56,688 nucleotides of DNA from an uncultured Anaerolineae bacterium (GCA_964557285.1 CAZKZS010000002.1:1-56688); one strand, 5' to 3'; numbered from the stretch's first letter, positions 9,044 to 26,876 are shown. Notes: generated by a model not told the origin, from the letters alone. Numbers and translations: made by a program.

Positions 9044-9080
9044 TGAAAGAACCTCCTCTAAGAATGATGTGCGATAACTT

Positions 9081-9109
9081 GGGGGGCAGCGTCGGCTTTG
9101 CCGCCCCCC
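9081..9109 (-). other. GC-rich stem-loop between the major tail and chaperone genes (possible attenuator or RNA stabiliser)
   Basis: GGGGGGCAGC ... GCCGCCCCCC arms with one mismatch and a 9-nt loop. No T-run follows on the minus strand, so this is not a classical terminator. Confidence 0.35.
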
Positions 9110-9111
9110 TG

Positions 9112-9555: not shown

Positions 9556-9566
9556 GGTTCATCCTC

Positions 9567-10028: not shown

Positions 10029-10510
10029 TTTTTGACAATCCTCGTCACCGCATCGCCGATCAGGCTGCGGATTTCGTCACGGTGCTGGTCGGCACTGCCT
10101 TGCAGGTAGCGCCGGGGTCGCGTGCCGCCGCGCCGGTAAATTGCCAGCGCCACGAGGGCGCCGGATTCCATACCGTGCCGGCTGGCCCACAGGTCGAGGG
10201 CGGACGGCGGCGGGAAGTAGCGGGCGTTGCCCGCGAAAATCCCGGTGCCGAACTCCATGTGGGGGGCGTAGGTGACGTTGCTTCCGACGACCCCTTCAAC
10301 GGTACGGTTGGGCGTCATCCGCACCTGCGGGACAATCGAGCCGCGCAGGATGCCCCGGTCGACGGGCGCGAGCCGCTTGGCGGTGCTGACCAGCAGCAGG
10401 GTGGCCCGCCGGAAAGCAGCCAGCACCGGCTCGCCGTGCAGGTCGGCGATGACCTGCTCCAGCTTGTCCTGGGTGTCGACCAGGCCGCGTACCTCGGCGT
10501 CGACGACCAT
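10025..10510 (-). CDS. HK97 gp10-family head-tail adaptor/tail completion protein
   Basis: Motifs RLAPVDRGILRGSI and YAPHMEFGTG are typical of the HK97 gp10 family. Confidence 0.7.
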   Translation of the reverse strand: MVVDAEVRGLVDTQDKLEQVIADLHGEPVLAAFRRATLLLVSTAKRLAPVDRGILRGSIVPQVRMTPNRTVEGVVGSNVTYAPHMEFGTGIFAGNARYFPPPSALDLWASRHGMESGALVALAIYRRGGTRPRRYLQGSADQHRDEIRSLIGDAVTRIVKK

Positions 10511-11208
10511 CAGGGGTGCAGGCGGCGCATCCGGCGCAGCATCATCGCCAGATCCGGGTCCAACTGCTGCCGGAACAGCACCGTCCCAAACTCGGCATTG
10601 GCGAGGGCGTCGGCCCAGGTGCCTTCGCCGCGTTTGTACCAGCGGCTGGCCTGGGTGATGGTGGCCTGCCGGATTTCCGGCGGCACGGTGTCGGCGTACC
10701 CCCAGCGGGCGGTGATCCGCACGGTCGGTACGGCGATCCCCAGGTCGCCGGCATGGCGGAGGTCTGACGGCAGGCTCAGGCTCGGATGGGCGGACACCGT
10801 GCCGGACGTGAACCGGCGTCCGGCGTCCAGCCCCTGCACGGTCAGCAGCACCCCCATATACGGGGTGCGGTTGAATCGCGGATAGCGGGGATCGCCCGTG
10901 AAAGCGGTCCAGTCCCCAGCGTCCCAGGCCATAAAGGTGGTGCTGTCAAGCGACTCCTTCACGGCCACGCTGGTGATGGCGATACACTCGTCCGTCCATT
11001 GATAGGCGCGTCCGCTGCCGGGAAAGTCGCGCGGCGTCGCGGTGAGGGCGGCCACGAAGCCGTCCTGAGCGCGGTTGCAGGTGTTGTCGATGGCCGCTTC
11101 CGCCGCTTCGATGAGGGCGGTCATGACCTGCTGCTGGGCGGCACCGCGCTGGGTGGCCGGCAGGTTCATGCCGTTAAACACCTCGTCAATGGAGGACACG
11201 TAGCGCAC
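10510..11208 (-). CDS. gp6-like head-tail connector protein
   Basis: GTG at 11206-11208 gives VRYVSSIDEVFNGMNLP..., 6 nt after the upstream stop. An alternative ATG lies at 11169. The track ORF start at 11373 overlaps the previous gene. Confidence 0.55.
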   Translation of the reverse strand: MRYVSSIDEVFNGMNLPATQRGAAQQQVMTALIEAAEAAIDNTCNRAQDGFVAALTATPRDFPGSGRAYQWTDECIAITSVAVKESLDSTTFMAWDAGDWTAFTGDPRYPRFNRTPYMGVLLTVQGLDAGRRFTSGTVSAHPSLSLPSDLRHAGDLGIAVPTVRITARWGYADTVPPEIRQATITQASRWYKRGEGTWADALANAEFGTVLFRQQLDPDLAMMLRRMRRLHP

Positions 11209-11213
11209 GGCGC

Positions 11214-11645
11214 CTAGCCCACCTTCTGGGTGTACAGGGTGCCAGGCACCGGGTTGTAGTCGGCGGGAAGGCCGATCAGTACGGCGCCAACGAGCGTGGC
11301 GGCGGTCGCCGGAGTCAGCGTCAGGCGCACATAGCGAAAGCCGTTGTTTTTGTCGAGTTCGGCGGCTTTGCACTCAATCGCCAGCAGCTTGTTGTCGTCA
11401 GCGTCGGTCAGCGGGGTGATCGCCTTGCCGGTGATGTCTTTGGCGCCCGCGCCGGCAGCGCTGGTGGCCTGTTCGAGTTTGGCGTTGAAGGTGCCGGTCG
11501 CGGCGATGGCGCCCACCAAAATGAGGGCGGCGATGCGCTCGTACAGGGCGCAGTCGACCCAGCCGGTCGACTGCGCGGTGGCGTAGCTGGCCGGGTCGAT
11601 TTTCGCCAGCGGTTCGTGGGTTTCGACGAACTTGTTGCTAAACAT
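11214..11645 (-). CDS. Hypothetical head-associated protein
   Basis: Internal ATG at 11643-11645 with an AAGGAG RBS, 15 nt after the capsid stop. 143 aa. Confidence 0.55.
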   Translation of the reverse strand: MFSNKFVETHEPLAKIDPASYATAQSTGWVDCALYERIAALILVGAIAATGTFNAKLEQATSAAGAGAKDITGKAITPLTDADDNKLLAIECKAAELDKNNGFRYVRLTLTPATAATLVGAVLIGLPADYNPVPGTLYTQKVG

Positions 11646-11659
11646 GGAACGCTCCTTGA

Positions 11660-12952
11660 CTACGCGGCCAGCGCCACAAAGGGCGACACCTGCGTGGTGC
11701 CGTCCTGGTAGGTCAGCGGCGCAGACAGCCAGGGTTTGCCGTCGATGCGTTCGACCACGCGCCAGGAGGTTTTGTCGTAGCGGAACAGTTCGTGCATCGA
11801 ACTGTCCACGGTCACGGCCTGGCGGTCGCCGATCAGGTAGTACGACCAGTCTGCGAGGCAGATATCCCCTTTGCTGCCCAGCACCGGCATTTTTTCGGTG
11901 AAAACGATGGGCAGCCCCAGCAGGCTGTTCGGGCGGCCGTTGGTGGCGTCGCCCCACAGGAACGACGGGTTCCCCGACGGGCCTTCCATGAGCATCAGCT
12001 TGGGCATGGCGCTCTGCGAGGCCAGCCAGATACCCTGGCCGCTGGAGGGCAGGAACTTGGCGAGCATGTCCACCAGGTCGGCGTAGGCGATGGTGCCCCC
12101 GCTGGCGCGGGTTTGTGTCAGGGTGGCCGGGGCATTCAGGATGCCCAGCGGTTTGCCGATCCCATCGCCCTGGACGAAGACAAAATCTTCCATCCAGGCG
12201 GCAGCGCCGGCGAAGCCGAGCGGGCCAGACAGAAAGGCTTCCAGGCCAATCGCGGCGTCGTCGAGCAGTTCGTCGGTCGCAACGGTGTAGCCCACCAGCT
12301 TGTGGGCGTCGAGGCGGATAAAACGGAACTTCGGCTGAGACTGCCCCTTCTGCTCGGCCTCGTCGGCCCAGTACATCTGGATGCCGCCAAACCAGTGGGG
12401 CTGCCCGGCGGTAATGCCGGTCTGGTCCAGCACCGGGATGGTGACGGTGCGGCGGCGCATCGGGATGACGGTCGCACGCGGGCGAACCACAGCCCGTTCA
12501 TTCTGGGCGGCTTGCAGCTGCGCCAGGAATTCGTCGGGGATAAGGAACCCGCCATCGGTCCCCGTCGCGCCGGTCAGGTCTTTCAGGTCGAGTTCGCGTT
12601 TGTGGGTTTCCTTCGACTCTTTGTCGTCGAAGTAGACCAGGCGCGGGTCGACCTGGTGCAGATGACAGGCGGCGTGGACTTTTTTCAGGAAGGCGCCCCA
12701 GTATTTGAACTGGCTGCGCTCCATGTGTCCGCCGGACGTGCCGGCGGCGGCGTCCGCAGCGCTTTCCTGAAGGGCGGTGAGATTCTTGGTGATGTCGTCG
12801 AAGCGATTGGCCCGTTCCTGTTTGGCCTTGCCTTCGGCAATCAGCTTTTCGGCTTTGTCCAGCGCTTCAGGATCATCGCTGTCCAGCAGTTCCTGGGCGC
12901 GGCGGAAGTCGGCAGTCGCTTCATCAAGCAGGGCACGATAGTTGCTGCTCAT
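11660..12952 (-). CDS. Major capsid protein, HK97 fold, with N-terminal coiled-coil delta/scaffold-like domain
   Basis: 430 aa. Helical N-terminus (about 100 aa), then the GGFLIPDEF...LVGYTVATDELLDDA...GLPIVFTE pattern typical of HK97-family capsids. It follows the protease. Confidence 0.9.
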   Translation of the reverse strand: MSSNYRALLDEATADFRRAQELLDSDDPEALDKAEKLIAEGKAKQERANRFDDITKNLTALQESAADAAAGTSGGHMERSQFKYWGAFLKKVHAACHLHQVDPRLVYFDDKESKETHKRELDLKDLTGATGTDGGFLIPDEFLAQLQAAQNERAVVRPRATVIPMRRRTVTIPVLDQTGITAGQPHWFGGIQMYWADEAEQKGQSQPKFRFIRLDAHKLVGYTVATDELLDDAAIGLEAFLSGPLGFAGAAAWMEDFVFVQGDGIGKPLGILNAPATLTQTRASGGTIAYADLVDMLAKFLPSSGQGIWLASQSAMPKLMLMEGPSGNPSFLWGDATNGRPNSLLGLPIVFTEKMPVLGSKGDICLADWSYYLIGDRQAVTVDSSMHELFRYDKTSWRVVERIDGKPWLSAPLTYQDGTTQVSPFVALAA

Positions 12953-12992
12953 GAGGTATGGCTCCCTATGCGGTTTACAGGCCGTGCGTCTG

Positions 12993-13973
12993 TCATTTTA
13001 GCTGTTGCAGCGCGGCGGCAAGGTCTTGACGGAGTTTGTCGGTGCGTGCAGGGTTCGCCTGCGGCGCGGCCGGGGTAGACGTTTCAGGGGTGCTGGCGGG
13101 GGCGTTCTGCAAAGAACGGACGGTAAGGCGCTTGGCTTCAGGAGCGCCTTCGTCCGCGAAAAAGAGGAGGTCGAAAAAGGAGTGGTTTTCGACCGGTCGG
13201 TGGCGGATGTCCTCTGGCAGCGACGCGACAAGCGTGGAGAGGGCGCTGGAGATCGCGGTTGTGAGATGCAGGTGTTCGTTGAAATCCAGCATACCGTTGG
13301 AGAGGAGGCTGCCGATGTAACCGCTGAGGGCAGAATACATTTTGGCGGCCAGGACATCGCCGAGGCGCGGTTGGGGCGTGCCGTCGGGCAGCCATTCCTT
13401 GTGGTCGGGCTGCTGCTTGGCGTCGAGGGTGGCGGTGGCCGGGTTCATGCCCCAGATGACCGGGCTGTACTCCCAGAGTCTGACAGCGCGAATATTCCGA
13501 ACCGTTCGGGGTTTGCCCTCGCGGTCGGTGATTTTGGACACATCGGCCTGCATGATTTCAAAGCCGATGGAATACTCTCGTACAAAGCCGCCCGCAATCA
13601 GGGCGAAGGTTTCCCGTCCGGCGACGGTGTCCAGGGCGAACTGAGTGTGCGTGTACAGCCCGCCGGCGGCGTCCGGGTACTCGGCCCGGATGTCCTCAGG
13701 CAGGTCGTCACGGCCAATTTCCCGGATGTCGAGCGGGCGCCCGACGACGTTCCGCACGGAGGATGTGTTGTGCTGGTCCAGCACGGTCACTCGCGCCCGC
13801 TGCCCGCGTTCGGACAGGGTTTTGGTGTACGCGCCGGGATGGATGATGTCGTCGCCGTCATCCACGATACCGAGGACGCTGACGACGGCCTCGACGGTTC
13901 CCTCGGCGTCGTTCACACGGAGGACTTTGACCGGGAAGGACTTGTAGATTTTTTCGTGGGTTTTGGTGGGCAT
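12993..13973 (-). CDS. Prohead protease, HK97 (S78) family, with C-terminal extension
   Basis: GTVEAVVSVLGIVDDGDDIIHPGAYTKTL, LDQHN..VGRP and YSIGF motifs. 326 aa. Confidence 0.85.
   Translation of the reverse strand: MPTKTHEKIYKSFPVKVLRVNDAEGTVEAVVSVLGIVDDGDDIIHPGAYTKTLSERGQRARVTVLDQHNTSSVRNVVGRPLDIREIGRDDLPEDIRAEYPDAAGGLYTHTQFALDTVAGRETFALIAGGFVREYSIGFEIMQADVSKITDREGKPRTVRNIRAVRLWEYSPVIWGMNPATATLDAKQQPDHKEWLPDGTPQPRLGDVLAAKMYSALSGYIGSLLSNGMLDFNEHLHLTTAISSALSTLVASLPEDIRHRPVENHSFFDLLFFADEGAPEAKRLTVRSLQNAPASTPETSTPAAPQANPARTDKLRQDLAAALQQLK
13497..13509. repeat. Palindrome copy CCGAACCGTTCGG (context TCCGAACCGTTCGGG)
   Basis: Exact 13-nt core, inside the protease gene. Confidence 0.9.
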
Positions 13974-13978
13974 GGCGG

Positions 13979-14386
13979 TTACACCTGAAGCTCGGAACGG
14001 ATGATTTTGACGTAGAACTCGGTCGTCGAGATGGCGTAGCCAAGCAGGGTCGACCAGTCGCCGGTGCCGAGATCCACGGGACGCATGGCGGCGCCCGCGA
14101 GGTCATCGGAGACGCAGTACCACTGCCCCTTCACCAGGCCGGAGCAGCCGGTGATCTTGCCTTCCGTGACTATCAGGCCCACCTGGTCGGCGCCGTTGCC
14201 GTTCATCAGAATCCCGACGGCCTGGGCAGCCGCCTGGCTGTTGCCCTGGGCAGCGGCCAGCTTGCCGTTGGTGTCGATGCGAACCCAGGCGCCGCAGGCG
14301 AGTGTGGCGGACAGGGTTTTGCGGTCGACTTTGGCGGCCGCATCGGGTTTGACGGTGGTGGGAAAGGTGAGGTTGCTGGCTCCCAT
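13979..14386 (-). CDS. DUF2190-like small head protein (possible decoration/cement protein)
   Basis: 135 aa, Gly/Ala-rich beta-type sequence upstream of the protease. RBS AGAGGTAATCC. Confidence 0.45.
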   Translation of the reverse strand: MGASNLTFPTTVKPDAAAKVDRKTLSATLACGAWVRIDTNGKLAAAQGNSQAAAQAVGILMNGNGADQVGLIVTEGKITGCSGLVKGQWYCVSDDLAGAAMRPVDLGTGDWSTLLGYAISTTEFYVKIIRSELQV

Positions 14387-14392
14387 GATGGA

Positions 14393-14830
14393 TTACCTCT
14401 TTCGGCGGCTGCGGCGCGGCGGATCATCGTCCCCACGCTCGTCTTCGGCGGGTTTGACAAACACCGTGTCCTCAGGAGGCGGCGCGTCGGCTTCGGTGTC
14501 CGGCTCGCCGTCTCCAACGAATACTTCGTCTGGCGCGTCGGTTGGCGGTTCCGGCTCCGGCGGCGGTGCGGGCCGCTCCCAGGACGGCGCCGCATCCGGC
14601 CCGCCGGTCAGGACGGCCAGCAGATGGAGGGTCGCATCGACAGGTGTGTACTGGGCAACGCGCCCTTCCTCGACAAAGACAAACGTCGAGGGCAGGCAGC
14701 CGTCCTTGACGATGGCATAGATGCCGTCCGTGAATGGCACGCTGGCAAGCGCGTCGCAGTAGGTGTCGTGCAGTGGGTCGGTGGCGGCAAACCCCGTTTG
14801 GCTCCCGTAAGCGAAAATGCTGTACCCCAT
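14393..14830 (-). CDS. Hypothetical protein with acidic Pro-rich C-terminal half and basic tail
   Basis: ATG at 14828-14830, RBS AAAGGGAG. It is the first gene of the head operon. Confidence 0.6.
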   Translation of the reverse strand: MGYSIFAYGSQTGFAATDPLHDTYCDALASVPFTDGIYAIVKDGCLPSTFVFVEEGRVAQYTPVDATLHLLAVLTGGPDAAPSWERPAPPPEPEPPTDAPDEVFVGDGEPDTEADAPPPEDTVFVKPAEDERGDDDPPRRSRRKR

Positions 14831-14929
14831 GTCGAACTCCCTTTCTGTGTAGATTGTATACCCATTCGTTTTTTTTGGCTATACATTTGTTCTAATCACG
14901 ACAATTTTTGGCGTATTCCCCCTTCGCTC

Positions 14930-14958
14930 TTTACACATACTACACTATAGTGTATTAT
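14930..14958 (+). promoter_or_regulatory. Promoter P1 with embedded operator TACAC-TATA-GTGTA
   Basis: -35 TTTACA (14930-35), 17-nt spacer, -10 TATTAT (14953-58). The palindrome at 14941-14954 overlaps the spacer and -10. Confidence 0.7.
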
Positions 14959-15019
14959 GATTATGACGTAGTAGGTGGCACCCCACTGCGCTTATTCAGC
15001 ACAGAAAGAAGGAGGAGAC

Positions 15020-15523
15020 ATGATGAACCACAAACCTGAACTGCCGCGCACACTCACCGGGCGACTGGCGGTTCCGAAGGGGTCGGCGGTGCTGTACTCC
15101 AGCCAGGCTGACGAGGAGTTTGGCCGTGTGGTCGGCCATGTGATCGGGCCATCGGGCCGGGTCAGCCACTATCAGGTAGTGACCAATGGCAAGATGGTAC
15201 GGGTTCCGACCTATCGGGTTCTCCGCGAGGCGCGGGACAGACAGCCGCTGCCGGGCGTGCCGGAACATATTCCAAGCCTGGTCGAGTTTGCCCGGTTGTG
15301 CCGGATGATCCGGGCCACCGTCCTCCGCAACGAGGACACACTGCTGGCAACAGTGGCGGGCCGCACCGCGATTTGTCATGTGTGCAGCAGCGAGCAGGTC
15401 GCCGTCCGCGCTCTGAAGACGGTGCAGGCGTCGCTCCGTCGTGTCGCTGCCCGCGATCCCCGTCCGCGTGTCTCTCGCGCCCCGTACCCGTCCTACCGAT
15501 GGGCCACCGGGGGCGGCCTATGA
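15020..15523 (+). CDS. Hypothetical protein
   Basis: ATG at 15020 after AGAAAGAAGGAGG. 167 aa. Confidence 0.6.
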   Translation: MMNHKPELPRTLTGRLAVPKGSAVLYSSQADEEFGRVVGHVIGPSGRVSHYQVVTNGKMVRVPTYRVLREARDRQPLPGVPEHIPSLVEFARLCRMIRATVLRNEDTLLATVAGRTAICHVCSSEQVAVRALKTVQASLRRVAARDPRPRVSRAPYPSYRWATGGGL

Positions 15524-15876
15524 AGGCCATTCCGAACCGTTCGGTACCGCCCATTCGTGACCTGTTCAACAAGATCGCAGACCCGGAGTGGATTCTCTGG
15601 TCACTGGTTGACGGCAAGGCGGCGGGCCGCTGCGGCAGCCTCCAGCGCCTGCTGGACGACCTCTGGCTGGTGCTGGTCTGGGTGGACCCTGATTTTGGCC
15701 TCCAGCACTGGCAGGCCGAGCGCTACCTGCGGGCCTGGCGCCGGCATTACCCAGACCAGGTGGAGGCGACACTGGAGTTGATCGAGGCGGTCATCCTGGA
15801 AACAAGCCGCCCGGATGAGATCAGCTGGTGCAGCACGATCCTTCAGCAGCGGGAAGGAGGGGCGGACGGATGGTGA
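15520..15876 (+). CDS. Hypothetical protein
   Basis: ATGA start/stop overlap at 15520. MKAIPNRSVPPIRDLF...; 118 aa. Confidence 0.55.
   Translation: MKAIPNRSVPPIRDLFNKIADPEWILWSLVDGKAAGRCGSLQRLLDDLWLVLVWVDPDFGLQHWQAERYLRAWRRHYPDQVEATLELIEAVILETSRPDEISWCSTILQQREGGADGW
15532..15544. repeat. Palindrome copy CCGAACCGTTCGG
   Basis: Exact 13-nt core at the 5' end of CDS 15520..15876. Confidence 0.9.
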
Positions 15877-16118
15877 CGCAGCTGATGTTGGTTCCAGTCA
15901 TGGTCGACGACTTGCGAGCGGAGGGCCTGCCTGCGTTCGCGCAGGATGCCGAGAGCGGTTTATGGGTGATGGAATTTGGGCAGGGCTGCCAGGCAGTGTT
16001 CACGGCGGACTATGACGAGTCGGTGCAGATCGCCCATCGGATGTGGGTTCGGCACGAACATCCGGCTTCTTTCCTTCCTGAGCCGGAACCCTGGTGGAGG
16101 CGGGAACATCCCTTCTGA
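15870..16118 (+). CDS. Hypothetical protein
   Basis: ATG at 15870 overlaps the upstream stop. 82 aa. Confidence 0.5.
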   Translation: MVTQLMLVPVMVDDLRAEGLPAFAQDAESGLWVMEFGQGCQAVFTADYDESVQIAHRMWVRHEHPASFLPEPEPWWRREHPF

Positions 16119-16142
16119 GATGATGGTTGTGGGAGTGTGCGG

Positions 16143-16171
16143 CCGCTGCTGTCCCTGGCAGCGGTTTTTTT
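16143..16171 (+). terminator. Rho-independent terminator
   Basis: CCGCTGC tgtccctg GCAGCGG followed by T7. Confidence 0.7.
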
Positions 16172-16188
16172 AGCGATGAGGAGGACCG

Positions 16189-16614
16189 ATGATCGCCATT
16201 ACTCTCCACCAGCCCTGGGCCACGCTGGTCGCTATCGGGGCAAAGGAATACGAGACACGAAGCTGGGCGACCCGGTATAGGGGACAGATCGCTATCCACG
16301 CGGGCAAGTACAAATGCCGGGACTACGGCAAGCTGCTGTGGCAGGATCCGTTTAAGTCGGTGCTGAAGAAAGCGGGCTTCGACTACTACGACGCGCTGCC
16401 GTTCGGGATGGTGATCGCGGTCGCGGACCTGACCGCCATCTACGATGGGGAGATGCTGGCACCGAAGCTGGCGGCGATGGGCCGCGATCAGGAACTGATT
16501 TTCGGTTCCTATGGGCCGGGCCGTTACGCCTGGCGGCTGGAAAACGTGAAACGAATCGCCCCGCGCCCGGCCAGAGGAGGGCATAAATTGTGGACTTGGC
16601 ACGCGGCGCTGTAG
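16189..16614 (+). CDS. ASCH domain protein
   Basis: MIAITLHQPWATLVAIGAKEYETRSW..YRGQIAIHAG matches the ASCH/PUA-like N-terminal signature. RBS GAGGAGGA. Confidence 0.65.
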   Translation: MIAITLHQPWATLVAIGAKEYETRSWATRYRGQIAIHAGKYKCRDYGKLLWQDPFKSVLKKAGFDYYDALPFGMVIAVADLTAIYDGEMLAPKLAAMGRDQELIFGSYGPGRYAWRLENVKRIAPRPARGGHKLWTWHAAL

Positions 16615-16627
16615 CACGGATGTGCTA
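16612..16627. promoter_or_regulatory. Palindrome TAGCAC-GGAT-GTGCTA (second operator-like family)
   Basis: Perfect 6-4-6 inverted repeat spanning the ASCH stop codon, 46 nt upstream of the next ATG. Confidence 0.3.
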
Positions 16628-16672
16628 GAAAGTTAAGCAAGGTAATCCAATTTACCTGGGAGCCGAGAGGTT

Positions 16673-17083
16673 ATGTATATCATAAAGGGAGTGATAACCG
16701 CCCCCCAGCGCTGGTGGCGCGAAACAAAGGTCGGGCTGTATGAGCGGCGGATCGTCTGGCTGGTCGATGTACTCGGAACGAGAGAATCCGAGCTTTCATT
16801 CGTGAAGGTGCGCTACAAGTGGCGCCATGACAAAGCCGGGTTTCGCGCGGACGTGATGTTGGATTGGGAGGGAAACCATATCGCTTACGGTGTGCTGGAA
16901 TTTCGGGGCGACGTGGTTCTGGAATGGAAGGATGGCGAGGTATACCGCTACCATCCGGGCTGGTGGGAGCGCGTTTTTGTCAACCTAGTTGAGCAAATAC
17001 AAGAGTCTTATGAACAGGCGCGGTTCGCCGAGTATGAGACGCGGTTCGCGCCGCACAAGTCGAAAGAAGAAGACGAGTATTAG
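16673..17083 (+). CDS. Hypothetical protein
   Basis: ATG at 16673, GAGAGG RBS. 136 aa. Confidence 0.6.
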
Positions 17084-17094
17084 AGGAGTTTTTG

Positions 17095-17532
17095 ATGAAG
17101 GTGGTACACATCTTTACCGATGGGGCGTGCAGGGGCAATCCGGGGCCGGGCGGCTGGGCTGTGCTGTTCCGCAGCCCGGACAGTGAGACACCGCGAGAAC
17201 TGTCCGGTGGCGACTCGAACACCACCAATAACCGGATGGAGCTAATGGCGATCATCATGGCGCTGGAGGCGCTGGAGGTTCCTCATATCATCATCCTGAC
17301 GACGGATTCGGAGTATGTCCGCAAGGGCATTACCGAATGGATCGTCCGATGGAAAGGCAACGGCTGGCGCACCTCGAATGGAAACGCCGTGAAAAATCGG
17401 GACTTGTGGGAACGACTGGATAACGCGGCCCAGCATCATACGATTGACTGGCGCTGGGTCCGTGGGCACGCGGGCAACCCAGACAATGAGCGCGTGGATG
17501 CGCTCGCAGTGGCGGCCATCCCAGATGATTAG
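17095..17532 (+). CDS. rnhA: Ribonuclease HI
   Basis: [29 protein letters not shown] and [16 protein letters not shown] cover the full DEDD(H) RNase H type 1 motif set. The ATG at 17095 is preceded by an in-frame TTG. Confidence 0.9.
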
Positions 17533-17722
17533 GGCCACCCTGTTCGGTCACGAGTGCCACTGGGACGGCGAATTGAGCGAGATGCTGGCACAGCCGGCGT
17601 CGGATTATACCCGGATCACCGAGGAACCATTCGCAGAAGACGAGGTATCCGCGCGAGCCAATGCGCTGTACGCCCGGATACAGGCCGTTTGGAAGAAACG
17701 AGCGGAGGCCAGGGATGAGTGA
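17525..17722 (+). CDS. Small hypothetical protein
   Basis: ATG at 17525 overlaps the rnhA 3' end. High third-position G+C. 65 aa. Confidence 0.5.
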
Positions 17723-18029
17723 CATCGGTCGTCGATACCGATTCGCCCGCGAGCAGGCCGGGCTGAGCATCGCGCAGACGGCGCGGTTATCTGGCCTTGA
17801 CGCGGAGGATGTCCGCGCTATCGAGGAAGGGATCATCATATACGATCCGGCGGGGCGGCTGCCGTCGATTTACGGGATTGACCCGGCCTGGCTGATTCAG
17901 GGCGCGGATTTTGAGGGCTTCGTGCTGAAAAACTTCACCCCCCTGGTGGATGCGCTGATTGCCGCCGGTCGGAAAGACCTGGCGCTTGAACTGATGGGGA
18001 TGAGCGGCACGCAGCGTCAGGAGCGGTGA
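17715..18029 (+). CDS. XRE-family helix-turn-helix protein
   Basis: RFAREQAGLSIAQTARLSGLDAEDVRAIEEG is a classic HTH_XRE pattern. 104 aa. Confidence 0.7.
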   Translation: MSDIGRRYRFAREQAGLSIAQTARLSGLDAEDVRAIEEGIIIYDPAGRLPSIYGIDPAWLIQGADFEGFVLKNFTPLVDALIAAGRKDLALELMGMSGTQRQER

Positions 18030-18030
18030 C

Positions 18031-18237
18031 GTGTTGAAATATGTGTACGACGCGGACAGTGACACGCTGCTCCGCACGGAAGAAGCCGAGCCAGTGTGCG
18101 GGGACTACTGCGAGAACTGCGGGGACTGCCTGCATTGTCACGCAGATACCCCATGCCGGAACGGCGGCAGCCACTGGTGGGTAGTGTATGAAGAAGGGAG
18201 CAAGGAGCCATGTCCAAAAAACGACGAAGTGTGGTAG
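18031..18237 (+). CDS. Cys-rich small protein
   Basis: GTG start. CGDYCENCGDCLHCHADTPC cluster. 68 aa. Confidence 0.45.
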   Translation: MLKYVYDADSDTLLRTEEAEPVCGDYCENCGDCLHCHADTPCRNGGSHWWVVYEEGSKEPCPKNDEVW

Positions 18238-18497
18238 GGAAAGGGACGCCACGCCCGGATTTGTTCCAGGGCGAGGTCATGGAGTGTAAGGTCTGCGGCA
18301 AGCGCGAGCAGTCGGACCCGGAGAAGGAATCCGGCTGGACAGTCTTACAAATCGATGACCAGGTGACCTACTTCTGCCCGGCCTGCTGGCACGGTGCCGG
18401 CGCCAAGGTCGGCTATGCGGAGGTGATGAAGCTGGCGGTGCTGATGCAGACCGACGGCCGCGCCCTGCGGATTTTCCGGTCGCTGCTGAGGGGCTGA
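18210..18497 (+). CDS. Zn-ribbon small protein, paralog 1
   Basis: AAGGAG RBS. Basic N-terminus, then FQGEVMECKVCGKREQS...WTVLQ...YFCPAC. Paralogous to 19481..19735. Confidence 0.6.
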   Translation: MSKKRRSVVGKGTPRPDLFQGEVMECKVCGKREQSDPEKESGWTVLQIDDQVTYFCPACWHGAGAKVGYAEVMKLAVLMQTDGRALRIFRSLLRG

Positions 18498-19456
18498 TGA
18501 GCAGCCACCAGCTGGCACAGGTCGGCGACCTGTATACCTGTGTGGTGTGCGGCTGGAACTGGAAGCGGATGCCGTCGGACGAGTGTCCCGGCGTCCGCCG
18601 CTACCGCTGGGACCCCTGGCCGGAGCAGCTGATGACCAAAAACCAGCTGGCGAAGGCAGGCTACCAGACGGGGCGCCGCCTGCCGCCAGTGGCCGGGGTG
18701 ATTGCCCGCGAAGACTCACCGGGCGGCTGGCTGCGGCTGTACGACCCCACTCAGGCCGTGCCAAAGCAGCCAGTGACGCCGCGCCAACAGGTCGCGCTCG
18801 CCAAAGCCCAGGCGGCGCGGAAGTGCCGGGAATGCGGCCGCACCCTGAGCCGTCGGGAGCGCCGGCTGTGCTGGACGTGTGATGCGCGGTTGGAAGCCCG
18901 CTACTGGGCGGCCTCGGTCTTGCAGCGGGGAGCCGTCATTCTGGACACGGAAACGACCGGGCTGGACAACGCCGAGATCATCGAACTGGCGGTCATTGAC
19001 GCCTACGAGCGCGTGCTGCTGAACACCCGGATTAAACCCCTCTGCCCGGAGCGGATGTATGAAGTGGGCAGCCGGGGTCTGAGCGCCTTCGACATTCACG
19101 GAATCAGCGCGGAGATGCTGGTGGATGCACCGACGTTCGCGGAGGTCTACCCGCGCCTGCGTCGCGTTGTGGAAGGCCGCCCGGTGCTGGTCTATAACCT
19201 GCGCTTCGACCGCGACCGCCTGCGGGAGGACTGCGAGCGCTGGCAGCTGCCGGCACTGGATTTTTCGGCCTGGGACTGCGCGATGGAGTGGTACGCACAG
19301 TGGATCGGTGAATGGTCGTATCGGCGTGGCTCGTTTCGCTGGCAGCCGCTGAACGGCGGGCACGATGCGCTGGGAGACTGCCTGGCATGTCTGGATCGGA
19401 TGAGGCGCATGGCGAACGCAACAATGCCGCGCACGCGAACGGGTGTGCTACAATAG
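18497..19456 (+). CDS. DEDDh 3'-5' exonuclease (DnaQ/epsilon-like) with N-terminal double Zn-ribbon region
   Basis: ILDTETTGL (ExoI), VYNLRFDRDRL (ExoII) and GGHDALGDCLA (ExoIII, H-type). N-terminal CVVCG...C and CRECG...CWTC. Confidence 0.8.
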   Translation: MSSHQLAQVGDLYTCVVCGWNWKRMPSDECPGVRRYRWDPWPEQLMTKNQLAKAGYQTGRRLPPVAGVIAREDSPGGWLRLYDPTQAVPKQPVTPRQQVALAKAQAARKCRECGRTLSRRERRLCWTCDARLEARYWAASVLQRGAVILDTETTGLDNAEIIELAVIDAYERVLLNTRIKPLCPERMYEVGSRGLSAFDIHGISAEMLVDAPTFAEVYPRLRRVVEGRPVLVYNLRFDRDRLREDCERWQLPALDFSAWDCAMEWYAQWIGEWSYRRGSFRWQPLNGGHDALGDCLACLDRMRRMANATMPRTRTGVLQ

Positions 19457-19480
19457 GAGGCAAAAACAGGAAGCCTCCCC

Positions 19481-19735
19481 GTGAAACACAAACGCAAGCG
19501 GCGGTCCGCGTCGCCCCTGTCGGCCCCGTTTACAGGTGAATGGATGGAGTGCCTGCTGTGCGGCAAGCGCGAGCGCAGCAGCCGTCACACTGGAAGCCGC
19601 TGGACAGTGATCCAGCGCCAGCGGCGGCATTACATCTGCCCGGACCACATCCCCGCGGACCCGGCGCAGTTTTTGACTGCTTACCTCACCTTCCAGGCTG
19701 CCGCCGTCCAAAAGGAAGCCCAGCATGGCCGCTGA
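19481..19735 (+). CDS. Zn-ribbon small protein, paralog 2
   Basis: GTG start. MKHKRKRRS... FTGEWMECLLCGKRERS...WTVIQ...YICP. Confidence 0.5.
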   Translation: MKHKRKRRSASPLSAPFTGEWMECLLCGKRERSSRHTGSRWTVIQRQRRHYICPDHIPADPAQFLTAYLTFQAAAVQKEAQHGR

Positions 19736-20480
19736 AACCTACATCACCAAAACGGGCCTCCACAAGCTGTCGATTAGCTGTGTCCGCGTGGGTGTCGGCA
19801 CTGGCGAGGTACAGGTGATGGTGAACGGAGAGACAAAACACCGGCTGCCCGTCGAGGCGGCGCGGATGGTGCTGGCGGTGTCCGTTCCCTACCACCTGAA
19901 GCGGGGCGACCACGTGGCGGTATCGGCCAACGCCAGCCTCCAGCCGCACGTCGAGGCCGTTTATCAGGATCGGGAGGTCATCCCGCTGGTGCTGTCAGGC
20001 AGCGAAGCCGAGTTCAAGGAATGGTGTCTGGAGCATCAGCTGGACCCGGACAACGCCTACCAGGTGATGCAGGTGCTGTATCCGATGGATCTGGCGGCGC
20101 TGGAAGCGGTCGAAAGCACCTGGCTGGTGCTGGCGGGCAGCTGGCGGCGCCGGCTGGCACACGACGCAGGACTGCGAAAGGCGGTTGAATACTGGCTGGG
20201 GCGTCCGGTTGTGGAAACGGTTCACGACTGGCGACGCTGTGTGACCCGCTGGCTGGTGGACCCCTGCCAGGCGGCGGAACTGGTCGTCGGCCCGGATGGC
20301 CGGGTACGGCGCACCAACAAGGCGGGGATCATCAAATTCCGGCACAGGGACATCCTCGACCACATTCTGGGCAACCGGCTTCAGGTCGGAGGATACACGT
20401 TAAGCTATCTCACCCGCGACCGAGAGTATCAGTATTGGACAATCATTGCCCCGCCACAAGGGGCGCTGCGGGATTTATAG
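19725..20480 (+). CDS. Hypothetical protein
   Basis: ATG at 19725. 251 aa. It is the last gene of the plus-strand island. Confidence 0.6.
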   Translation: MAAETYITKTGLHKLSISCVRVGVGTGEVQVMVNGETKHRLPVEAARMVLAVSVPYHLKRGDHVAVSANASLQPHVEAVYQDREVIPLVLSGSEAEFKEWCLEHQLDPDNAYQVMQVLYPMDLAALEAVESTWLVLAGSWRRRLAHDAGLRKAVEYWLGRPVVETVHDWRRCVTRWLVDPCQAAELVVGPDGRVRRTNKAGIIKFRHRDILDHILGNRLQVGGYTLSYLTRDREYQYWTIIAPPQGALRDL

Positions 20481-20544
20481 CGTCCACCTGGCCCATCTTA
20501 TTAACTTAGGCAGCACGGAGGGTGGCGGCTCCCTCCCAGGTGAT

Positions 20545-20557
20545 CCGAACGGTTCGG
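20545..20557. repeat. Palindrome copy CCGAACGGTTCGG with flank (CCCAGGTGATCCGAACGGTTCGGA)
   Basis: Exact core in the convergent intergenic gap between 20480 and the portal stop at 20560. The GGAGGG/CCCTCC hairpin lies just upstream at 20517-20537. Confidence 0.9.
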
Positions 20558-20559
20558 AC

Positions 20560-22764
20560 TCAGTCCATCACCAGCCCAACGGCACAGCGGCAGTCCATGA
20601 CCTCGCTCAGCGGTGCCCCCTGGCTCAGGTCGAGCGGGTACATCATGGTGTAGCCGCCCACGATGAAGGGTTCATCCAGGGGGATCGGGCCAGGGCTGCC
20701 GCCCGCCACGTAGCGCCGCCCGGCGTCTTCATGGGTGTCGCGCACCCGGTCGTCAAAGGTCGCCAGCCACTCTTTGCGGTTGGCACCCCACTGCTTGCCC
20801 AGATTGAATGTCCCCACATTGAGCATCCGCATGGATTCGACGCGGGCGATCAGTTCGCGCCGGTAGGCCGGCAGCCGGTCTTCAAACCACCGGAAGTCTT
20901 CCGCCGTCAGCCCGCCGTCCATGTACTGTTTGAACAGGAGGTCGAGCCGGTCGGTCATCTGGTCGATACTCCAGCCTTCTTTGCGGGCGAGCAGCAGCAT
21001 GGCCTGAATATCGTCACTGGTGGTCTGGGTGATCGGCTGGGCGAAGGTCAGGGTGTAGTCGGCGAACCAGGCTTCGCCATCCAGGCTCCGCAGGTTGAAG
21101 GCGAGGCCGAGCTTGGCCGCCCATTCCTGTCCACCTTCAAGGGCGATCCCTTCCAGCAGTGGGATGAACGTCTCGCGCCACTGGTCGCCCGCCTGCTGTT
21201 TGAGGTAGGTCAGCGCGTCGATTTCGACCTCGTTCCAGTTGAGGGTCGCTTTGCGCTGGAGTGCTTTTTGCCGGGCGGCAGGAAGCAGCGCCAGGAGTTC
21301 GCGCCGGTCCGCTTCAAACGCCTCGCGGGCCGCGTTTTCAAAATCGGTCTGCCAGCGGTCGGCGATGCCGGTCATTTTGACCCACATCGGCGGGTGGAGG
21401 ATTTTGGGCGGCTCGCTGCCGTTGTTCGGCGGTTCGGCGTCGGTGGGTTTCGACCCGTCCTCTGCCGGCTGAGGCTTGTTGGGGGACGGCAGGACGAGGC
21501 GCGACTGGTCATCGCCGGGGTAGCGCGGCACCCGCAGCCCGACCACCTGGTAGGCGAGATACGGCGGCGTCCCCATCGTCCACAGGTTCCTGGCAGCGGT
21601 GGTCTGCTCAACGACCGATTTTCGCAGCGCCGGCACGTCGGACAGATCATGCATGGCAAACGCGCCGTCGGCGGTCGTCAGGTAGCGCAGAAAGGCTGAA
21701 TCAAACAGACCCAGTTCCGGGATGAGCGAGTCTTCCCAGAAAGCCCGCCGGGCCGTTTCGTAGTTGGAGTAGGTGCTGTGTTTGAGGCCGATGAGTGCCC
21801 CCACCAGGATCGGCGGCACGCCCAGCGCCATCAGAATCCGGGCTTCGTTGCGGGCGTCGATGCCCTCGAAGCCCATTTCGTTGAAGGTCGGCGAGATGCG
21901 CTGGTAGTCGGCGTCTTCATCCAGCACGCCGATGGAGTCGAACCAGTTTTCCGCCCCCCCATAGAGTTCGCGCCAGCGAGCACGGGCCGCGTCCTTCTGG
22001 TCATCGTCGAGCGCCACCTTGTACTTGAGGAGTCCGGCCAGCATCATGCCGTGCTGGAAGAAGCGCTTGAGGGTGTCGGTCACCTCGTTATCAATGTCCC
22101 CAGCGCGGCCAGCGGGCAGCAGCGGCGACATGCCTTTGCCCAGCCCGGCCAGCGGGTCGGACAGGTTGGGCAGCTTCACATGAATCATGTCGTCGGGAAC
22201 AATCGGCCAGCCGTCCCGGTTGTTTTTGCCAGGCGGGGTGTAGTAATACCCCTTCACGGTGTTGTCCGACCCCGGCACGACCTTGATACGGTCCGGGCGC
22301 AGCACATACATCGCGCTGGGCAGCACGTCCGAGCGGGTGCGCTGCAACCAGATGAAGGCGTTGCCGGTGATGCCGAGGAAACAGACGGCCAGCGCCTGGA
22401 AGTTCCAGCGCAGCATCTGGGGCGCCGGGCGCTCCAACAGCTGGCTGAGCGGATGATCCGGCGGGGCGGGTTCGGGGTTATCGCGGTCGCCCAGGTAGGC
22501 GCGGAGCGGGGCTGCCGCGACTGCGTTGGCCTTGTACAGGACGGCGCGGTAAATGAGGGTGTTGCGCTCATAGCCTTCGCTGATGTAGGCGTCCTCGTTG
22601 CCCAGCAGCCAGAGGGGCTGCTGGTGGTACCAGTCTCCCCACAGGCGCAGGCCGGCCTTGACGGATCGGTGCGGCAGGGCGGCACCGAAAACCAGAGCGG
22701 CCGCCAGACTGAAACGCTGCCCCAGGGACAGACGCGGCGAGTAGGGTGCAGAGGATTGGCTCAT
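20560..22764 (-). CDS. Portal protein fused to an SPP1 gp7 / Mu F-like minor head domain
   Basis: 734 aa. The N-terminal ~450 aa are portal-like and follow TerL. The C-terminus WLATFDDRVRDTHEDAGRRY...PLDEPF...YPLDLSQGAPLSEVMDCRCAV matches the MuF/gp7 signature. Confidence 0.8.
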   Translation of the reverse strand: MSQSSAPYSPRLSLGQRFSLAAALVFGAALPHRSVKAGLRLWGDWYHQQPLWLLGNEDAYISEGYERNTLIYRAVLYKANAVAAAPLRAYLGDRDNPEPAPPDHPLSQLLERPAPQMLRWNFQALAVCFLGITGNAFIWLQRTRSDVLPSAMYVLRPDRIKVVPGSDNTVKGYYYTPPGKNNRDGWPIVPDDMIHVKLPNLSDPLAGLGKGMSPLLPAGRAGDIDNEVTDTLKRFFQHGMMLAGLLKYKVALDDDQKDAARARWRELYGGAENWFDSIGVLDEDADYQRISPTFNEMGFEGIDARNEARILMALGVPPILVGALIGLKHSTYSNYETARRAFWEDSLIPELGLFDSAFLRYLTTADGAFAMHDLSDVPALRKSVVEQTTAARNLWTMGTPPYLAYQVVGLRVPRYPGDDQSRLVLPSPNKPQPAEDGSKPTDAEPPNNGSEPPKILHPPMWVKMTGIADRWQTDFENAAREAFEADRRELLALLPAARQKALQRKATLNWNEVEIDALTYLKQQAGDQWRETFIPLLEGIALEGGQEWAAKLGLAFNLRSLDGEAWFADYTLTFAQPITQTTSDDIQAMLLLARKEGWSIDQMTDRLDLLFKQYMDGGLTAEDFRWFEDRLPAYRRELIARVESMRMLNVGTFNLGKQWGANRKEWLATFDDRVRDTHEDAGRRYVAGGSPGPIPLDEPFIVGGYTMMYPLDLSQGAPLSEVMDCRCAVGLVMD

Positions 22765-22775
22765 ACTAGGCTCCC

Positions 22776-24101
22776 TTAGAGTGGGCTGGACCGCTTGCGC
22801 TCCATGATCGGGACGATATAGCGCAGCGCGTCGAGGTGGTGATACGCGGCTTTGTTTTTGATTTTGTCCGTCGTGTTCCCGTCGGCGTCGAGTTCACGAC
22901 TGTAGGTGGCGATTTCGTCCAGTATACCATGACAGTCATCGAAGACATACAAGCGGAACTGACGGAGCAGCTGGGTCACCCGGTCGATGCCCGCCTCAAC
23001 ATCGGTGATGAGGGGTTCCCTGATGCGGGTCATGCCGGCGGCGAGCCAGTCGGCCCGCTGCTGGATTTCGGACTGGTTGCCGATGGCCCAGCCCTGGACC
23101 CGCTCGCTACCCTGCGCGGCGAGCTTGCGGTGATGGGCCACCAGTTCGGGTGTGGATTTGCGGCCGTCGAGTTCGGTGCGGTAGACGTAGTAGATCGGCG
23201 CCGCTTTGGTCGGGTCTTCCGCGATCCAGACCGAGGCCGTGTGCACGCCGCCAGGATCGATTCCGACCCAGCGCGGCCAGTGGGGCGGGATGTTGAAAGG
23301 CCGGATTTTATGACCGCCGTTTTCCTCATACTCGTCGATGAAGTCCTCGTAGATGAGGCCGGCGGGCCGCTCAAACAGGCCCATGTACATCATGCGGAAC
23401 AGCCAGGCGACGGTGTCGGCACGGCGTTCGTTGAACTCCGCAAACGAAAAGGCCGGGTTCACGACGCTGGCAAACTGGATAACATCAATGTCGGCCGCAC
23501 CTTTGCGCCAAGGGTCGTAAATGTGCTGTTTGAGCCAGCCGAGGTTGTAGGGCGTGGTCGTGCCCAGCACCCGCCCGCGAAAGAGGGAGAGCCGGCGCTT
23601 GACGGCCTGCCAGGCGCCCAGCCCAAATTCGTCCTGACCGCATTCGTCGAGCCAGGCGGCGCGGGCCGTCGCGGACTCCAGCCCGCCAGGGGAAGAAGCC
23701 GAGCGCAGGATAATGCGCCCCCACATCGGGTCGCGGCTGCGTTTGGCAAGATAGCGCCCCGTCTGTGGGTCGCGCAGTTCAATCACCTGGTCGCCCGCCC
23801 AGTAGCGCCCGATGTGGAGCAGCTCCTCGAAGACGGTCAGCATCTCCGGGAGCATCTTCAACTTGAACAGGTCATAAGTGGCGGTGACGGCCAGGTAGTC
23901 GCCGCCGTTCATGCGCTGGATTTCGCGGTGCAGCCACCAGGGGCCGAAGCTGGTCTTGCCGGACTGTGTGCCGGCGATGACAAACACAAAGCGCCTGGTG
24001 CTGTCCCAGGCGCGGGTCTGACCCGGATGCAGGTGCAGACGCAGCACCTTGCCGTCGCGCTCGTAGATCGTGCTAAGCGGGTTCGTCGGCAGGGCCACCA
24101 T
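22776..24101 (-). CDS. terL: Terminase large subunit
   Basis: Walker A AGTQSGKTS, Walker B AAWLDECGQDEF and an RNase-H-like nuclease motif VGIDPGGVHTAS. 441 aa. Confidence 0.9.
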   Translation of the reverse strand: MVALPTNPLSTIYERDGKVLRLHLHPGQTRAWDSTRRFVFVIAGTQSGKTSFGPWWLHREIQRMNGGDYLAVTATYDLFKLKMLPEMLTVFEELLHIGRYWAGDQVIELRDPQTGRYLAKRSRDPMWGRIILRSASSPGGLESATARAAWLDECGQDEFGLGAWQAVKRRLSLFRGRVLGTTTPYNLGWLKQHIYDPWRKGAADIDVIQFASVVNPAFSFAEFNERRADTVAWLFRMMYMGLFERPAGLIYEDFIDEYEENGGHKIRPFNIPPHWPRWVGIDPGGVHTASVWIAEDPTKAAPIYYVYRTELDGRKSTPELVAHHRKLAAQGSERVQGWAIGNQSEIQQRADWLAAGMTRIREPLITDVEAGIDRVTQLLRQFRLYVFDDCHGILDEIATYSRELDADGNTTDKIKNKAAYHHLDALRYIVPIMERKRSSPL

Positions 24102-24513
24102 AATCTTTAATCACTTCGATGGTTTTGATGTGGGTCACGGTGGCGCTGTCCACATGCACCTCCGGCACGTTGGACAGGCCCATGACGCGAATCTGGCGGT
24201 CCATGATCTTCAGCGCGGCGTCAATGGCCTCCAGGTCACCCGCCGCCGCTTTGTCCCAGACCCCGACCAGCAGCTTGTCGAGCCGGGCCAGCACGAGCAT
24301 GATCCGGTCGTTCGCTTTCTGGGCGTACTGCTGGCGCCATTCCTTCAGGATGGCCTTGTAGTCGCTGGCGATGGTGCCCACCGACACGCCCAGCTTGTCG
24401 GCGATGACGCGGTAAGACACCCCGCCGCGCACCTGGGCCGCGACGAACACCCGGCGCTCCTCAATCGAGAGGCGGTCGGCAGCTTGCGCCTGACGGCGGT
24501 CGTTGAGGGTCAT
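24073..24513 (-). CDS. terS: Terminase small subunit (HTH type)
   Basis: 146 aa. HTH GVSYRVIADKLGVSVGTIASDY. It overlaps the terL start by 29 nt. Confidence 0.65.
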   Translation of the reverse strand: MTLNDRRQAQAADRLSIEERRVFVAAQVRGGVSYRVIADKLGVSVGTIASDYKAILKEWRQQYAQKANDRIMLVLARLDKLLVGVWDKAAAGDLEAIDAALKIMDRQIRVMGLSNVPEVHVDSATVTHIKTIEVIKDYGGPADEPA

Positions 24514-25454
24514 CGTTCAGCCGCTTTTGTGTTCAGGTAATGCTGGGCCAGTTTGACCAGCGCGTCGACGGGGCGATCCGGGTCGATGTCGGCGCGGGCG
24601 ATCAGGGTCTTGATCGCTTTTTGCAGCACGGCCGCGTCTTTGGCCTTGAGGTCGCTGGCACGCAGCAGCACAGGCAGCGACACCAGCGGCAGGCCGTCCT
24701 TGAGGTCGCCGTCCGCGTTGAAGACGTGTTCGGCCAGGTCGCCGGCACGGGCGAGGAAAAATTGCAGGATGAGGTGCAGGGCAACCGCTACATTTTTGAC
24801 ATCGAAGGTGGCGCGGCTGATGTCCAGCGCGTCCAGATAGCGGCCGTAGTCGGTCCATCGCGCCAGCCAGGCTTCGTTCCCCGCCACCAGCTGGGCGGCC
24901 AGGGCAAACGCTTCACGGGCGGCGTCACGTTCGTCCGGCAGAAAGACCAGGCTGACCGTCTGGAAGCCAAAGGCGGCCTCGGACAGCGGCTGGATTTTCG
25001 TCGGCTCCAGCAGAGCAATCGTTTTGTCGTCCACGCCGGAGTACACCCGGTCTTCGACCGTCGGGATGGACTCATAGAGGATTTTGAGGATGGCCGGGTC
25101 ATCCTGCCCGAAGATGCTGTTGTGGGACAGCTGGACGGCGATGCGGCGGGCCGGGTCGTGGTAGCCGAGAATGACCTGAACCTCAATGGTGGCGAGGCCG
25201 GCGTCGATGGCGGCCTGAACGCGGTGGTTGCCGCTGAGGACTTCGAGGAAGGGCTGACCGTCGTCATCCACCTGCGGGGTGCGGGTGGTGTCGTCGTGCA
25301 GTTCCCAGCAGAGTGGGGTCGAGGTCAGCACACCGTCGCGTTTGATGTTTTCAACCAGACGGCGGTACATCTCGGCCGGCATGTAGTGGGCGTTCAGGTC
25401 GAGCAGCTTGAGGGTTCGTGGGTCGACCGTGCGGGTGTGCAGTTGCAGAGTCAT
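24510..25454 (-). CDS. ParB-like nuclease domain protein
   Basis: Internal ATG at 25452-25454 with a GGAG RBS. LDLNAHYMP, DGVLTSTPL and LSGNHRVQAAIDAG form a ParB N-terminal (sulfiredoxin-fold) pattern. 314 aa. Confidence 0.65.
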   Translation of the reverse strand: MTLQLHTRTVDPRTLKLLDLNAHYMPAEMYRRLVENIKRDGVLTSTPLCWELHDDTTRTPQVDDDGQPFLEVLSGNHRVQAAIDAGLATIEVQVILGYHDPARRIAVQLSHNSIFGQDDPAILKILYESIPTVEDRVYSGVDDKTIALLEPTKIQPLSEAAFGFQTVSLVFLPDERDAAREAFALAAQLVAGNEAWLARWTDYGRYLDALDISRATFDVKNVAVALHLILQFFLARAGDLAEHVFNADGDLKDGLPLVSLPVLLRASDLKAKDAAVLQKAIKTLIARADIDPDRPVDALVKLAQHYLNTKAAER

Positions 25455-26809: not shown

Positions 26810-26834
26810 ACGGGGAGTCCTTTGGAAAGAAAAA

Positions 26835-26876
26835 GGCCCGGTCGCAGAGGTACTGAGGGGAAGGTGCGGACCGGGC
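26835..26876 (-). terminator. Hairpin terminator/attenuator after the tRNA-like gene
   Basis: Minus strand: GCCCGGTC ... GACCGGGC (8-bp stem) followed by CTTTTTCTTTCC. An A-run on the other side makes it potentially bidirectional. Confidence 0.5.

Follow-up and report, generated by a model that had tools for sequence, protein, structure and literature searches.

Why should a phage carry a 5.5-kb set of oppositely oriented genes between portal and protease, in a head module of the HK97 type whose genes are normally contiguous? The question is raised by a contig of an uncultured Anaerolineae bacterium (GCA_964557285.1 CAZKZS010000002.1:1-56688), here called the window (the whole stretch of DNA analysed, ~56.7 kb, 63% G+C). 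The window seems to represent an almost complete phage contig, and the host of this uncultured phage probably belongs to the Chloroflexota. Thirteen plus-strand genes at 15020-20480, referred to as the block, part the minus-strand portal gene from the minus-strand protease and capsid genes. The preferred reading, with a probability of about 0.55, is that the block is a regulon-controlled early operon of DNA and RNA metabolism, placed at a permissive junction, that would serve nucleic-acid housekeeping while host machinery replicates the phage DNA.

The block and its promoter cassette

The block is bounded by the portal stop (20560) and the first gene of the head operon (14830), with minus-strand genes on both flanks, in line with the opposite orientation claimed in the first-pass annotation. 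Its genes are closely packed or overlapping, have a third-position GC of 0.68-0.82 and are mostly preceded by recognisable ribosome-binding sites. The same gene calls were obtained by an independent pipeline on identical metagenomic contigs, and the count is therefore 13 genes rather than the 14 open reading frames (ORFs) first reported. The contents were otherwise listed correctly: an ASCH protein, RNase HI, a weakly matching XRE-type helix-turn-helix (HTH) protein, a Cys-rich peptide, a DEDDh exonuclease with a zinc module, a pair of paralogous Zn-ribbon proteins and six proteins without family match. The features of the block are given below (aa, amino acids; g1 to g13, its genes in order).

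14930-14958, plus strand: block promoter, TTTACA-17-TATTAT, score 10/12.
14941-14954: perfect palindromic operator TACACTATAGTGTA, overlapping the promoter spacer and the -10 element.
14959-15019, plus strand: 5' leader; contains a CAGCACA motif and, as ribosome-binding site, GAAAGAAGGAGG, elements that recur after other cassette copies.
15020-15523, plus strand: g1, 167 aa, orphan, no match in Pfam, PHROG, NCBIfam or PADLOC.
15520-15876, plus strand: g2, 118 aa, no family match; its start overlaps the g1 stop (ATGA); holds the palindrome at 15532.
15870-16118, plus strand: g3, 82 aa, no family match.
16141-16173, plus strand: intrinsic-terminator-like hairpin (~10 bp stem and T7 run) between g3 and g4.
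16189-16614, plus strand: g4, 141 aa, ASCH (PUA-like) protein.
16673-17083, plus strand: g5, 136 aa, no significant match.
17095-17532, plus strand: g6, 145 aa, RNase HI (NCBIfam NF001236, Pfam PF00075).
17498-17722, plus strand: g7, 74 aa, no family match.
17715-18029, plus strand: g8, 104 aa, weak match to XRE-type HTH proteins.
18031-18237, plus strand: g9, 68 aa, Cys-rich peptide, recognised from its sequence.
18210-18497, plus strand: g10, 95 aa, Zn-ribbon protein, paralogue of g12.
18497-19456, plus strand: g11, 319 aa, zinc-binding module at the N-terminus and a DEDDh 3'-5' exonuclease behind it.
19481-19735, plus strand: g12, 84 aa, Zn-ribbon protein, paralogue of g10.
19725-20480, plus strand: g13, 251 aa, orphan.
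20481-20559, no strand: convergent spacer from g13 to the portal stop, with a GC hairpin (~20517-20536), CAGGTGAT and the palindrome CCGAACGGTTCGG at 20545-20557.

An operator-promoter of its own had been claimed for the block, and the promoter with its palindrome is present at 14930-14958. It is one copy of a sigma-70-type promoter cassette (TTKAC-N6-TACAC-N4-GTGTA) that was also located at 27074, 28117, 31146, 36151, 45949 and 48506, and in a weaker version at 36920. The cassette pattern gave nine matches, against 0.04 expected by chance. All 7-8 cassette copies lie on the plus strand, immediately upstream of plus-strand genes, and each plus-strand operon of the genome begins with one. The likeness reaches into an upstream T-rich/CCC stretch, and several copies also share the leader (CAGCACA hairpin and ribosome-binding site AAGAAAGAAGG). 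Right before at least two of the cassettes (31146, 36151) stands the hairpin-plus-T-run terminator of the previous unit. Upstream of the two minus-strand operons, no common late-promoter motif was found beyond the plus-strand cassette itself. The same operator is thus present at the promoters of several dispersed operons, as in P1-like regulons, and the block looks like a member of a common regulon that comprises about eight operons.

The composition of the block is native. Its tetranucleotide profile correlates with that of the rest of the genome at 0.958, as for any other 5.5-kb segment. Since the promoter cassette is shared with the other plus-strand operons and the composition is native, the block is regarded as an integral early operon, and the earlier label of an island, if taken to mean inserted foreign DNA, is not supported. 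That the block is a recently acquired island or mobile element bounded by palindromes is very improbable. Its opposite orientation inside an otherwise co-linear late region, the palindromes near 15532 and 20545 and its absence from distant relatives would fit such an origin, but the composition is indistinguishable from the remaining genome, and the block starts with a cassette of promoter, leader and ribosome-binding site that the phage itself repeats elsewhere. Integrative or transposable elements are marked by a recombinase or transposase, by element-specific flanking repeats and by deviant composition; neither such enzymes nor block-specific flanking direct repeats were found for the block.

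The palindromes themselves belong to a genome-wide family. The 13-nt palindrome CCGAACNGTTCGG is present in seven exact copies (13497, 15532, 20545, 27017, 40638, 45898, 50345), and 10 matches were obtained with one mismatch allowed (0.38 expected by chance). Copies near both ends of the block hence exist as first noted. They do not mark its ends, because copy 15532 sits in coding sequence inside g2, 500 bp into the block, and copy 13497 inside the protease gene. Palindromes 27017 and 45898 are located ~60 bp upstream of a cassette promoter. CCGAACNGTTCGG could be a protein-binding site (for a ParB-like protein or a regulator) or an RNA element. The composite element of the convergent spacer (GC hairpin, CAGGTGAT, palindrome) was also detected at about 36189-36227 and, inverted, at 40638-40680. 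As an intrinsic terminator the spacer was unconvincing (no T-run, folding z-scores of -0.1 and -1.2).

For comparison, the C1-controlled operons of phage P1 reportedly carry accessory genes of DNA metabolism (ban, ssb, ref, dmt) and are set among late operons. In both phages, one operator is repeated at many places in the genome. The lifestyle may be similar as well: ParB and a ParM-like actin are encoded in the window, and no integrase was found among its proteins scanned. Unlike the asymmetric 17-bp operator of P1, the operator of the window is symmetric (TACAC-N4-GTGTA) and is situated in the promoter spacer; the phage is also unrelated to P1 (HK97-type head, ~57 kb) and differs in gene content. 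In P1, 22 C1 operators are scattered over the genome (PMC8546580). By analogy, one repressor might bind all cassette operators and silence the operons in the lysogen.

Under the preferred reading, the block would be expressed early or in mid-infection together with the other plus-strand operons (ParB, ParM-like protein, DnaC-like loader) under a common regulator. The three unassigned genes g1 to g3 would be transcribed first. The gap before g4 is too short for a new promoter, and read-through into the ten downstream genes is likely attenuated by the terminator-like hairpin.

Proteins encoded by the block

In g11, a zinc module (H4/C15/C18/C30, TKxQL region, C110/C113/C125/C128) is followed by an RNase_T domain (PF00929, E 2e-10, 41.9 bits against a cut-off of 24). 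The DxE, NxxxD and HxxxxD motifs are present, and 36 homologues all keep D150, E152, D238, H289 and D294. An AlphaFold2 model (predicted local distance difference test, pLDDT, 93) was matched by Foldseek with a probability of 1.00 to Pol III epsilon, ExoX and the Cas2-DnaQ domain. The phage DnaQ-like proteins N15 Dnq and S-CBWM1 were also matched, in agreement with PHROG 192. All Foldseek matches concern the exonuclease domain; none was obtained for the N-terminal zinc module. The DEDDh fold and motifs are shared with the phage DnaQ-like exonucleases (PHROG 192; N15 Dnq, VP882, S-CBWM1 epsilon-like), which are likewise early-region genes of temperate or plasmid-type phages. Unlike these, g11 has a zinc module of 140 residues at its N-terminus that is distantly similar to NF041638, is not covered by any cultured-phage match and probably acts in targeting.

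Two closer assignments of g11 were rejected. As a bona fide Pol III epsilon (NF004316 / TIGR01406) it scored 48.9 bits against 196, a cut-off that applies to the full length with the C-terminal alpha-binding region, and only residues 146-247 matched. As a member of the RRQRL-motif zinc protein family NF041638 it scored 50.5 bits against 65 over residues 35-128; it is related, with the motif TKxQL. The zinc-module exonuclease has 629 homologues, which are metagenomic. Among 50,697 phage records, no cultured-phage match covers 80% of its length; cultured phages match in the exonuclease domain only, with proteins annotated as DNA polymerase exonuclease subunit, including that of VP882. A scan of IMG/VR with the single exonuclease protein returned nothing.

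The assignment of g6 to RNase HI is firm in both databases (Pfam: E 2.9e-45, 154 bits against a cut-off of 25.8; NCBIfam equivalog: 209.2 bits against 160). Aligned with E. coli RNase HI (rnhA), it is 57% identical and keeps the four catalytic carboxylates (D9, E49, D71 and D135, corresponding to E. coli D10, E48, D70 and D134). It differs from the E. coli enzyme in being phage-encoded and in having Asn in the place of His124.

With g4, the Pfam ASCH model (PF04266) was passed marginally (22.3 bits against a cut-off of 21.2). Further matches were phrog_3193 (E 3e-30) and, in the PDB, the ASCH domain of TRIP4 (E 3e-6). The GxKxxExR octapeptide (G17, K19, E22, R24) reads GAKEYETR at residues 17-24 and aligns with GIKRVEGR of TRIP4. 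By gathering score and octapeptide, g4 falls into the GKER class of ASCH proteins (TRIP4, EOLA1, TthASCH), with which it shares the PUA-like fold match; it differs from them as a stand-alone phage protein. GKER-class ASCH proteins are reported to deacetylate N4-acetylcytidine (ac4C) in tRNA (preprint 10.64898/2026.02.27.708502). Deacetylation of ac4C is accordingly a candidate activity of g4.

The remaining proteins are less distinct. g8 matched HTH_19 below the Pfam cut-off (E 8e-6) and transcriptional repressor families of PHROG (E 1.7e-4 and weaker). The Zn-ribbon proteins g10 and g12 are 45% identical to each other (E 2e-12). No homologue of g1 other than g1 itself was found among 5.8 billion proteins, and for g13 only weak partial matches were obtained among 1.84 billion representative proteins. 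A single-sequence structure model of g13 was uninformative (pLDDT 43). Proteins of 247-248 aa are encoded after the exonuclease in two metagenomic contigs (L018, L019); comparison with g13 revealed no homology. The six proteins that match no family could have any role. Each identifiable enzyme of the block is an ordinary member of its family.

Homologue context and the role of the operon

ASCH, RNase H and exonuclease were initially interpreted as acting together in coordinated processing of nucleic acid. The enzyme identities and the unusual placement behind this interpretation were upheld, and the coordination was not. For the co-occurrence survey, 85 other loci with exonuclease homologues were inspected with 10-kb flanks. 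RNase H was found in none of them, ASCH in six and Cys-rich peptide homologues in two (L018, L050), counts that do not support a tight system of the three enzymes. A looser association of ASCH and exonuclease is possible.

The survey also bears on the idea that zinc-module exonuclease, ASCH and small Zn/Cys proteins constitute a conserved functional module, one machine acting on modified or hybrid nucleic acid, with RNase HI as a lineage-specific addition. In L018, ASCH (44% identical to g4) is the gene immediately before the exonuclease; in L019, it forms part of a separate 529-aa upstream neighbour. The Cys-rich peptide homologues are near the exonuclease, and Zn-ribbon proteins flank it in L019 and L021. 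Against these cases stand the low counts of the survey, the distance of six genes between ASCH and exonuclease in the window and the general commonness of ASCH in phages (phrog_3193), and such a module is judged quite unlikely. The same doubt attaches to a further version, with the zinc-module exonuclease as the core of an undescribed phage module that, with ASCH and Cys/Zn-ribbon companions, recognises and degrades modified or hybrid nucleic acid, for example in counter-defence. That this module would here have gained RNase HI and been moved into the head-gene cluster is similarly doubtful.

In five long metagenomic contigs (L018-L022), the exonuclease homologues are located in early regions of unrelated integrase-bearing elements, and in four of the five they adjoin genes for ParA, a large ParB-like protein, DnaA_N or SSB. 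Because the homologues have ParA, ParB-like, DnaA_N, SSB and integrase genes as neighbours, a role in replication or housekeeping would suit their context better than counter-defence. The exonuclease gene is found a few genes downstream of ParA in L018, L019, L020 and L022, and L019, L020 and L022 also carry a 668-755-aa protein with a weak ParB_N match near it. Operons of ParA and ParB-PUA (DUF3850) have been reported (PMC12704722), and the ParA/ParB-like/ASCH context in L018-L022 echoes them.

A counter-defence operon, with products that neutralise host immunity, is considered unlikely. RNase HI and exonuclease would in that case degrade hybrids, multicopy single-stranded DNA (msDNA) or signalling nucleotides, ASCH would erase or read modifications, and the orphans and small Zn proteins would be inhibitors. 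Three orphan genes, placed just after a strong promoter of early type and ahead of a terminator, occupy a typical host-takeover place, many small, fast-evolving Zn or Cys proteins are encoded in the block, and the form of exonuclease common in metagenomes (629 homologues) is matched at >=80% coverage by none of the phage records. However, defence and anti-defence models gave no match save for the generic DEDDh domain: with PADLOC, only generic DEDDh and PDC-S48 models were hit, both on the exonuclease domain, and the other nine proteins tested had no match. The exonuclease homologues, moreover, are situated in early regions and not in variable accessory regions. Strain-level variation was not seen either; the block was recovered in ten other contigs, all >=99.99% identical to the window and nine of them 100%. 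SRR17055917 and SRR32688043 are among the samples in which the phage is present.

As a housekeeping operon, the block would most likely assist the host replisome in replicating or recombining the phage DNA. RNA primers and R-loops would be cleared by RNase HI, whereas the task of the DnaQ-like exonuclease with its zinc module would be to trim or proofread 3' ends. The ASCH protein would act on modified RNA or DNA, either by binding or by deacylation. The small Zn-ribbon, Cys-rich and HTH proteins would be accessory or regulatory partners.

Several points weigh against this assignment. Six of the 13 proteins are without family match, and both that were searched exhaustively (g1, g13) are orphans. 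RNase HI has Asn at the position of His124 of the E. coli enzyme. The class "early" is deduced from the shared promoters and the content of the sister operons. In two unrelated phages (L018, L019), ASCH immediately precedes the exonuclease, which hints at a functional link beyond pure housekeeping. Finally, the phage has no close relative, and with the next portals <=49% identical any comparison of gain and loss spans a long distance.

The portal-protease junction and the genome around it

The contiguity of HK97-type head genes assumed at the outset was borne out in distant relatives (portal <=49% identical). Portal, protease and capsid genes are directly adjacent, with the block missing from the junction, in five of them (L001-L003, L103, L105), and the order is terminase-portal-protease-capsid where the contig is long enough. 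In a further relative (L104), the portal-protease junction holds a single opposite-strand gene for a DUF559/MTES_1575 endonuclease (12141-12935, minus strand), followed by a homologue of the 135-aa protein of the window (E 9e-11). This suggests that a homing-type or otherwise mobile gene exploits the junction. Since the genes are adjacent in five relatives and L104 carries a different gene, the junction is normally closed, yet a recurrent insertion point in the lineage. In the window it parts two late transcription units, each facing a plus-strand cassette promoter. The placement of the block would thus be at a permissive junction between late units, with no functional tie to head assembly. 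A portal scan of GTDB genomes returned nothing, and no match was obtained by megablast of 11000-25000 against the 50,697 phage records.

A DUF559-like gene is also present in the window at 46017-46559 (plus strand), away from the junction. The proteases of the relatives measure 436-495 aa, and three of them (482-495 aa) have an N-terminal domain followed by an acidic Pro-rich linker. The protease of the window has 326 aa and is preceded by separate ORFs of 145 and 135 aa, the former similar in composition to the linker; a gene split or fusion may account for the difference.

The layout of the window was derived from third-position GC analysis and Pfam scans, as follows.

1-14830, minus strand: tail and head genes (third-position GC, Pfam).
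11660-12952, minus strand: capsid (Pfam scan).
12993-13973, minus strand: S78 protease (Pfam scan).
12993-14830, minus strand: start of the head operon and flank of the block, encoding the 145-aa protein, the 135-aa protein and the S78 protease.
14881-14853, minus strand: promoter-like site before the head operon.
15020-20480, plus strand: block of 13 genes.
20560-26966, minus strand: packaging operon, with portal-MuF, large terminase, small-terminase-like HTH, ParB-like and DAM-like/GNAT genes and a tRNA call.
20560-22764, minus strand: portal-MuF fusion, last gene of the packaging operon (Phage_portal, E 1.6e-50).
27181-51928, plus strand: long region with genes for ParB, a DnaC/IstB-like loader, a ParM-like actin, DUF3560, DUF488, a PAPS (3'-phosphoadenosine-5'-phosphosulfate)-reductase-like protein and others.

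Among the plus-strand proteins scanned, no polymerase, primase or helicase was matched; replication and partition matches were confined to ParB, the DnaC/IstB-like loader and the ParM-like actin (34014-34976, 38879-39859 and 41412-42530, respectively). Given these three genes and the lack of an integrase match among the proteins scanned, the phage may persist as a plasmid prophage. Besides g8, HTH proteins are encoded at 35470-36075 and 40683-41237. A DUF488 protein of the active N3 subclade is encoded at 35058-35492 (plus strand) and also in the exonuclease-bearing L018 (20810-21092). In the packaging operon, a ParB-like protein (phrog_7405) and a fusion of DAM-like methyltransferase and GNAT-phage-like protein (phrog_7858) are encoded directly upstream of the terminase genes (24510-26809, minus strand). 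At the very start of this operon, a tRNA-Gly with the unusual anticodon ACC was called by ARAGORN (26896-26966, minus strand); the call overlaps the upstream part of a long ORF and is either a real phage tRNA or false. No family was matched in an Rfam scan of the whole window. The segment 52035-54245 is low in GC (0.52 against 0.63 for the genome), with a tetranucleotide correlation of 0.47, and codes for a membrane-like protein of 433 aa and a secreted-like Cys-rich protein of 268 aa, both without Pfam match. It looks like recently acquired cargo or a moron.

Morons are autonomous gene cassettes between adjacent late genes of lambdoid and HK97-like phages. Like a moron, the block is inserted between genes that are adjacent in relatives, has its own promoter and is not needed for the function of its flanks. 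Unlike one, it comprises 13 genes instead of one or two, is native in composition (correlation 0.958), is driven by a regulon promoter and has no canonical terminator (no 3' T-run). By gene order and promoter, the block may be described as a dispersed early accessory operon or as a large moron-like insertion.

Current concepts of phage genome mosaicism are left unchanged by the block. What it adds is an example of a whole early operon under regulon control being accommodated at the portal-protease junction, which is conserved in HK97-type head modules. It further provides a clean eight-copy promoter-operator regulon in a lineage without an experimental system, and it points to a widespread, uncharacterised exonuclease architecture in which a zinc module is joined to a DEDDh domain.

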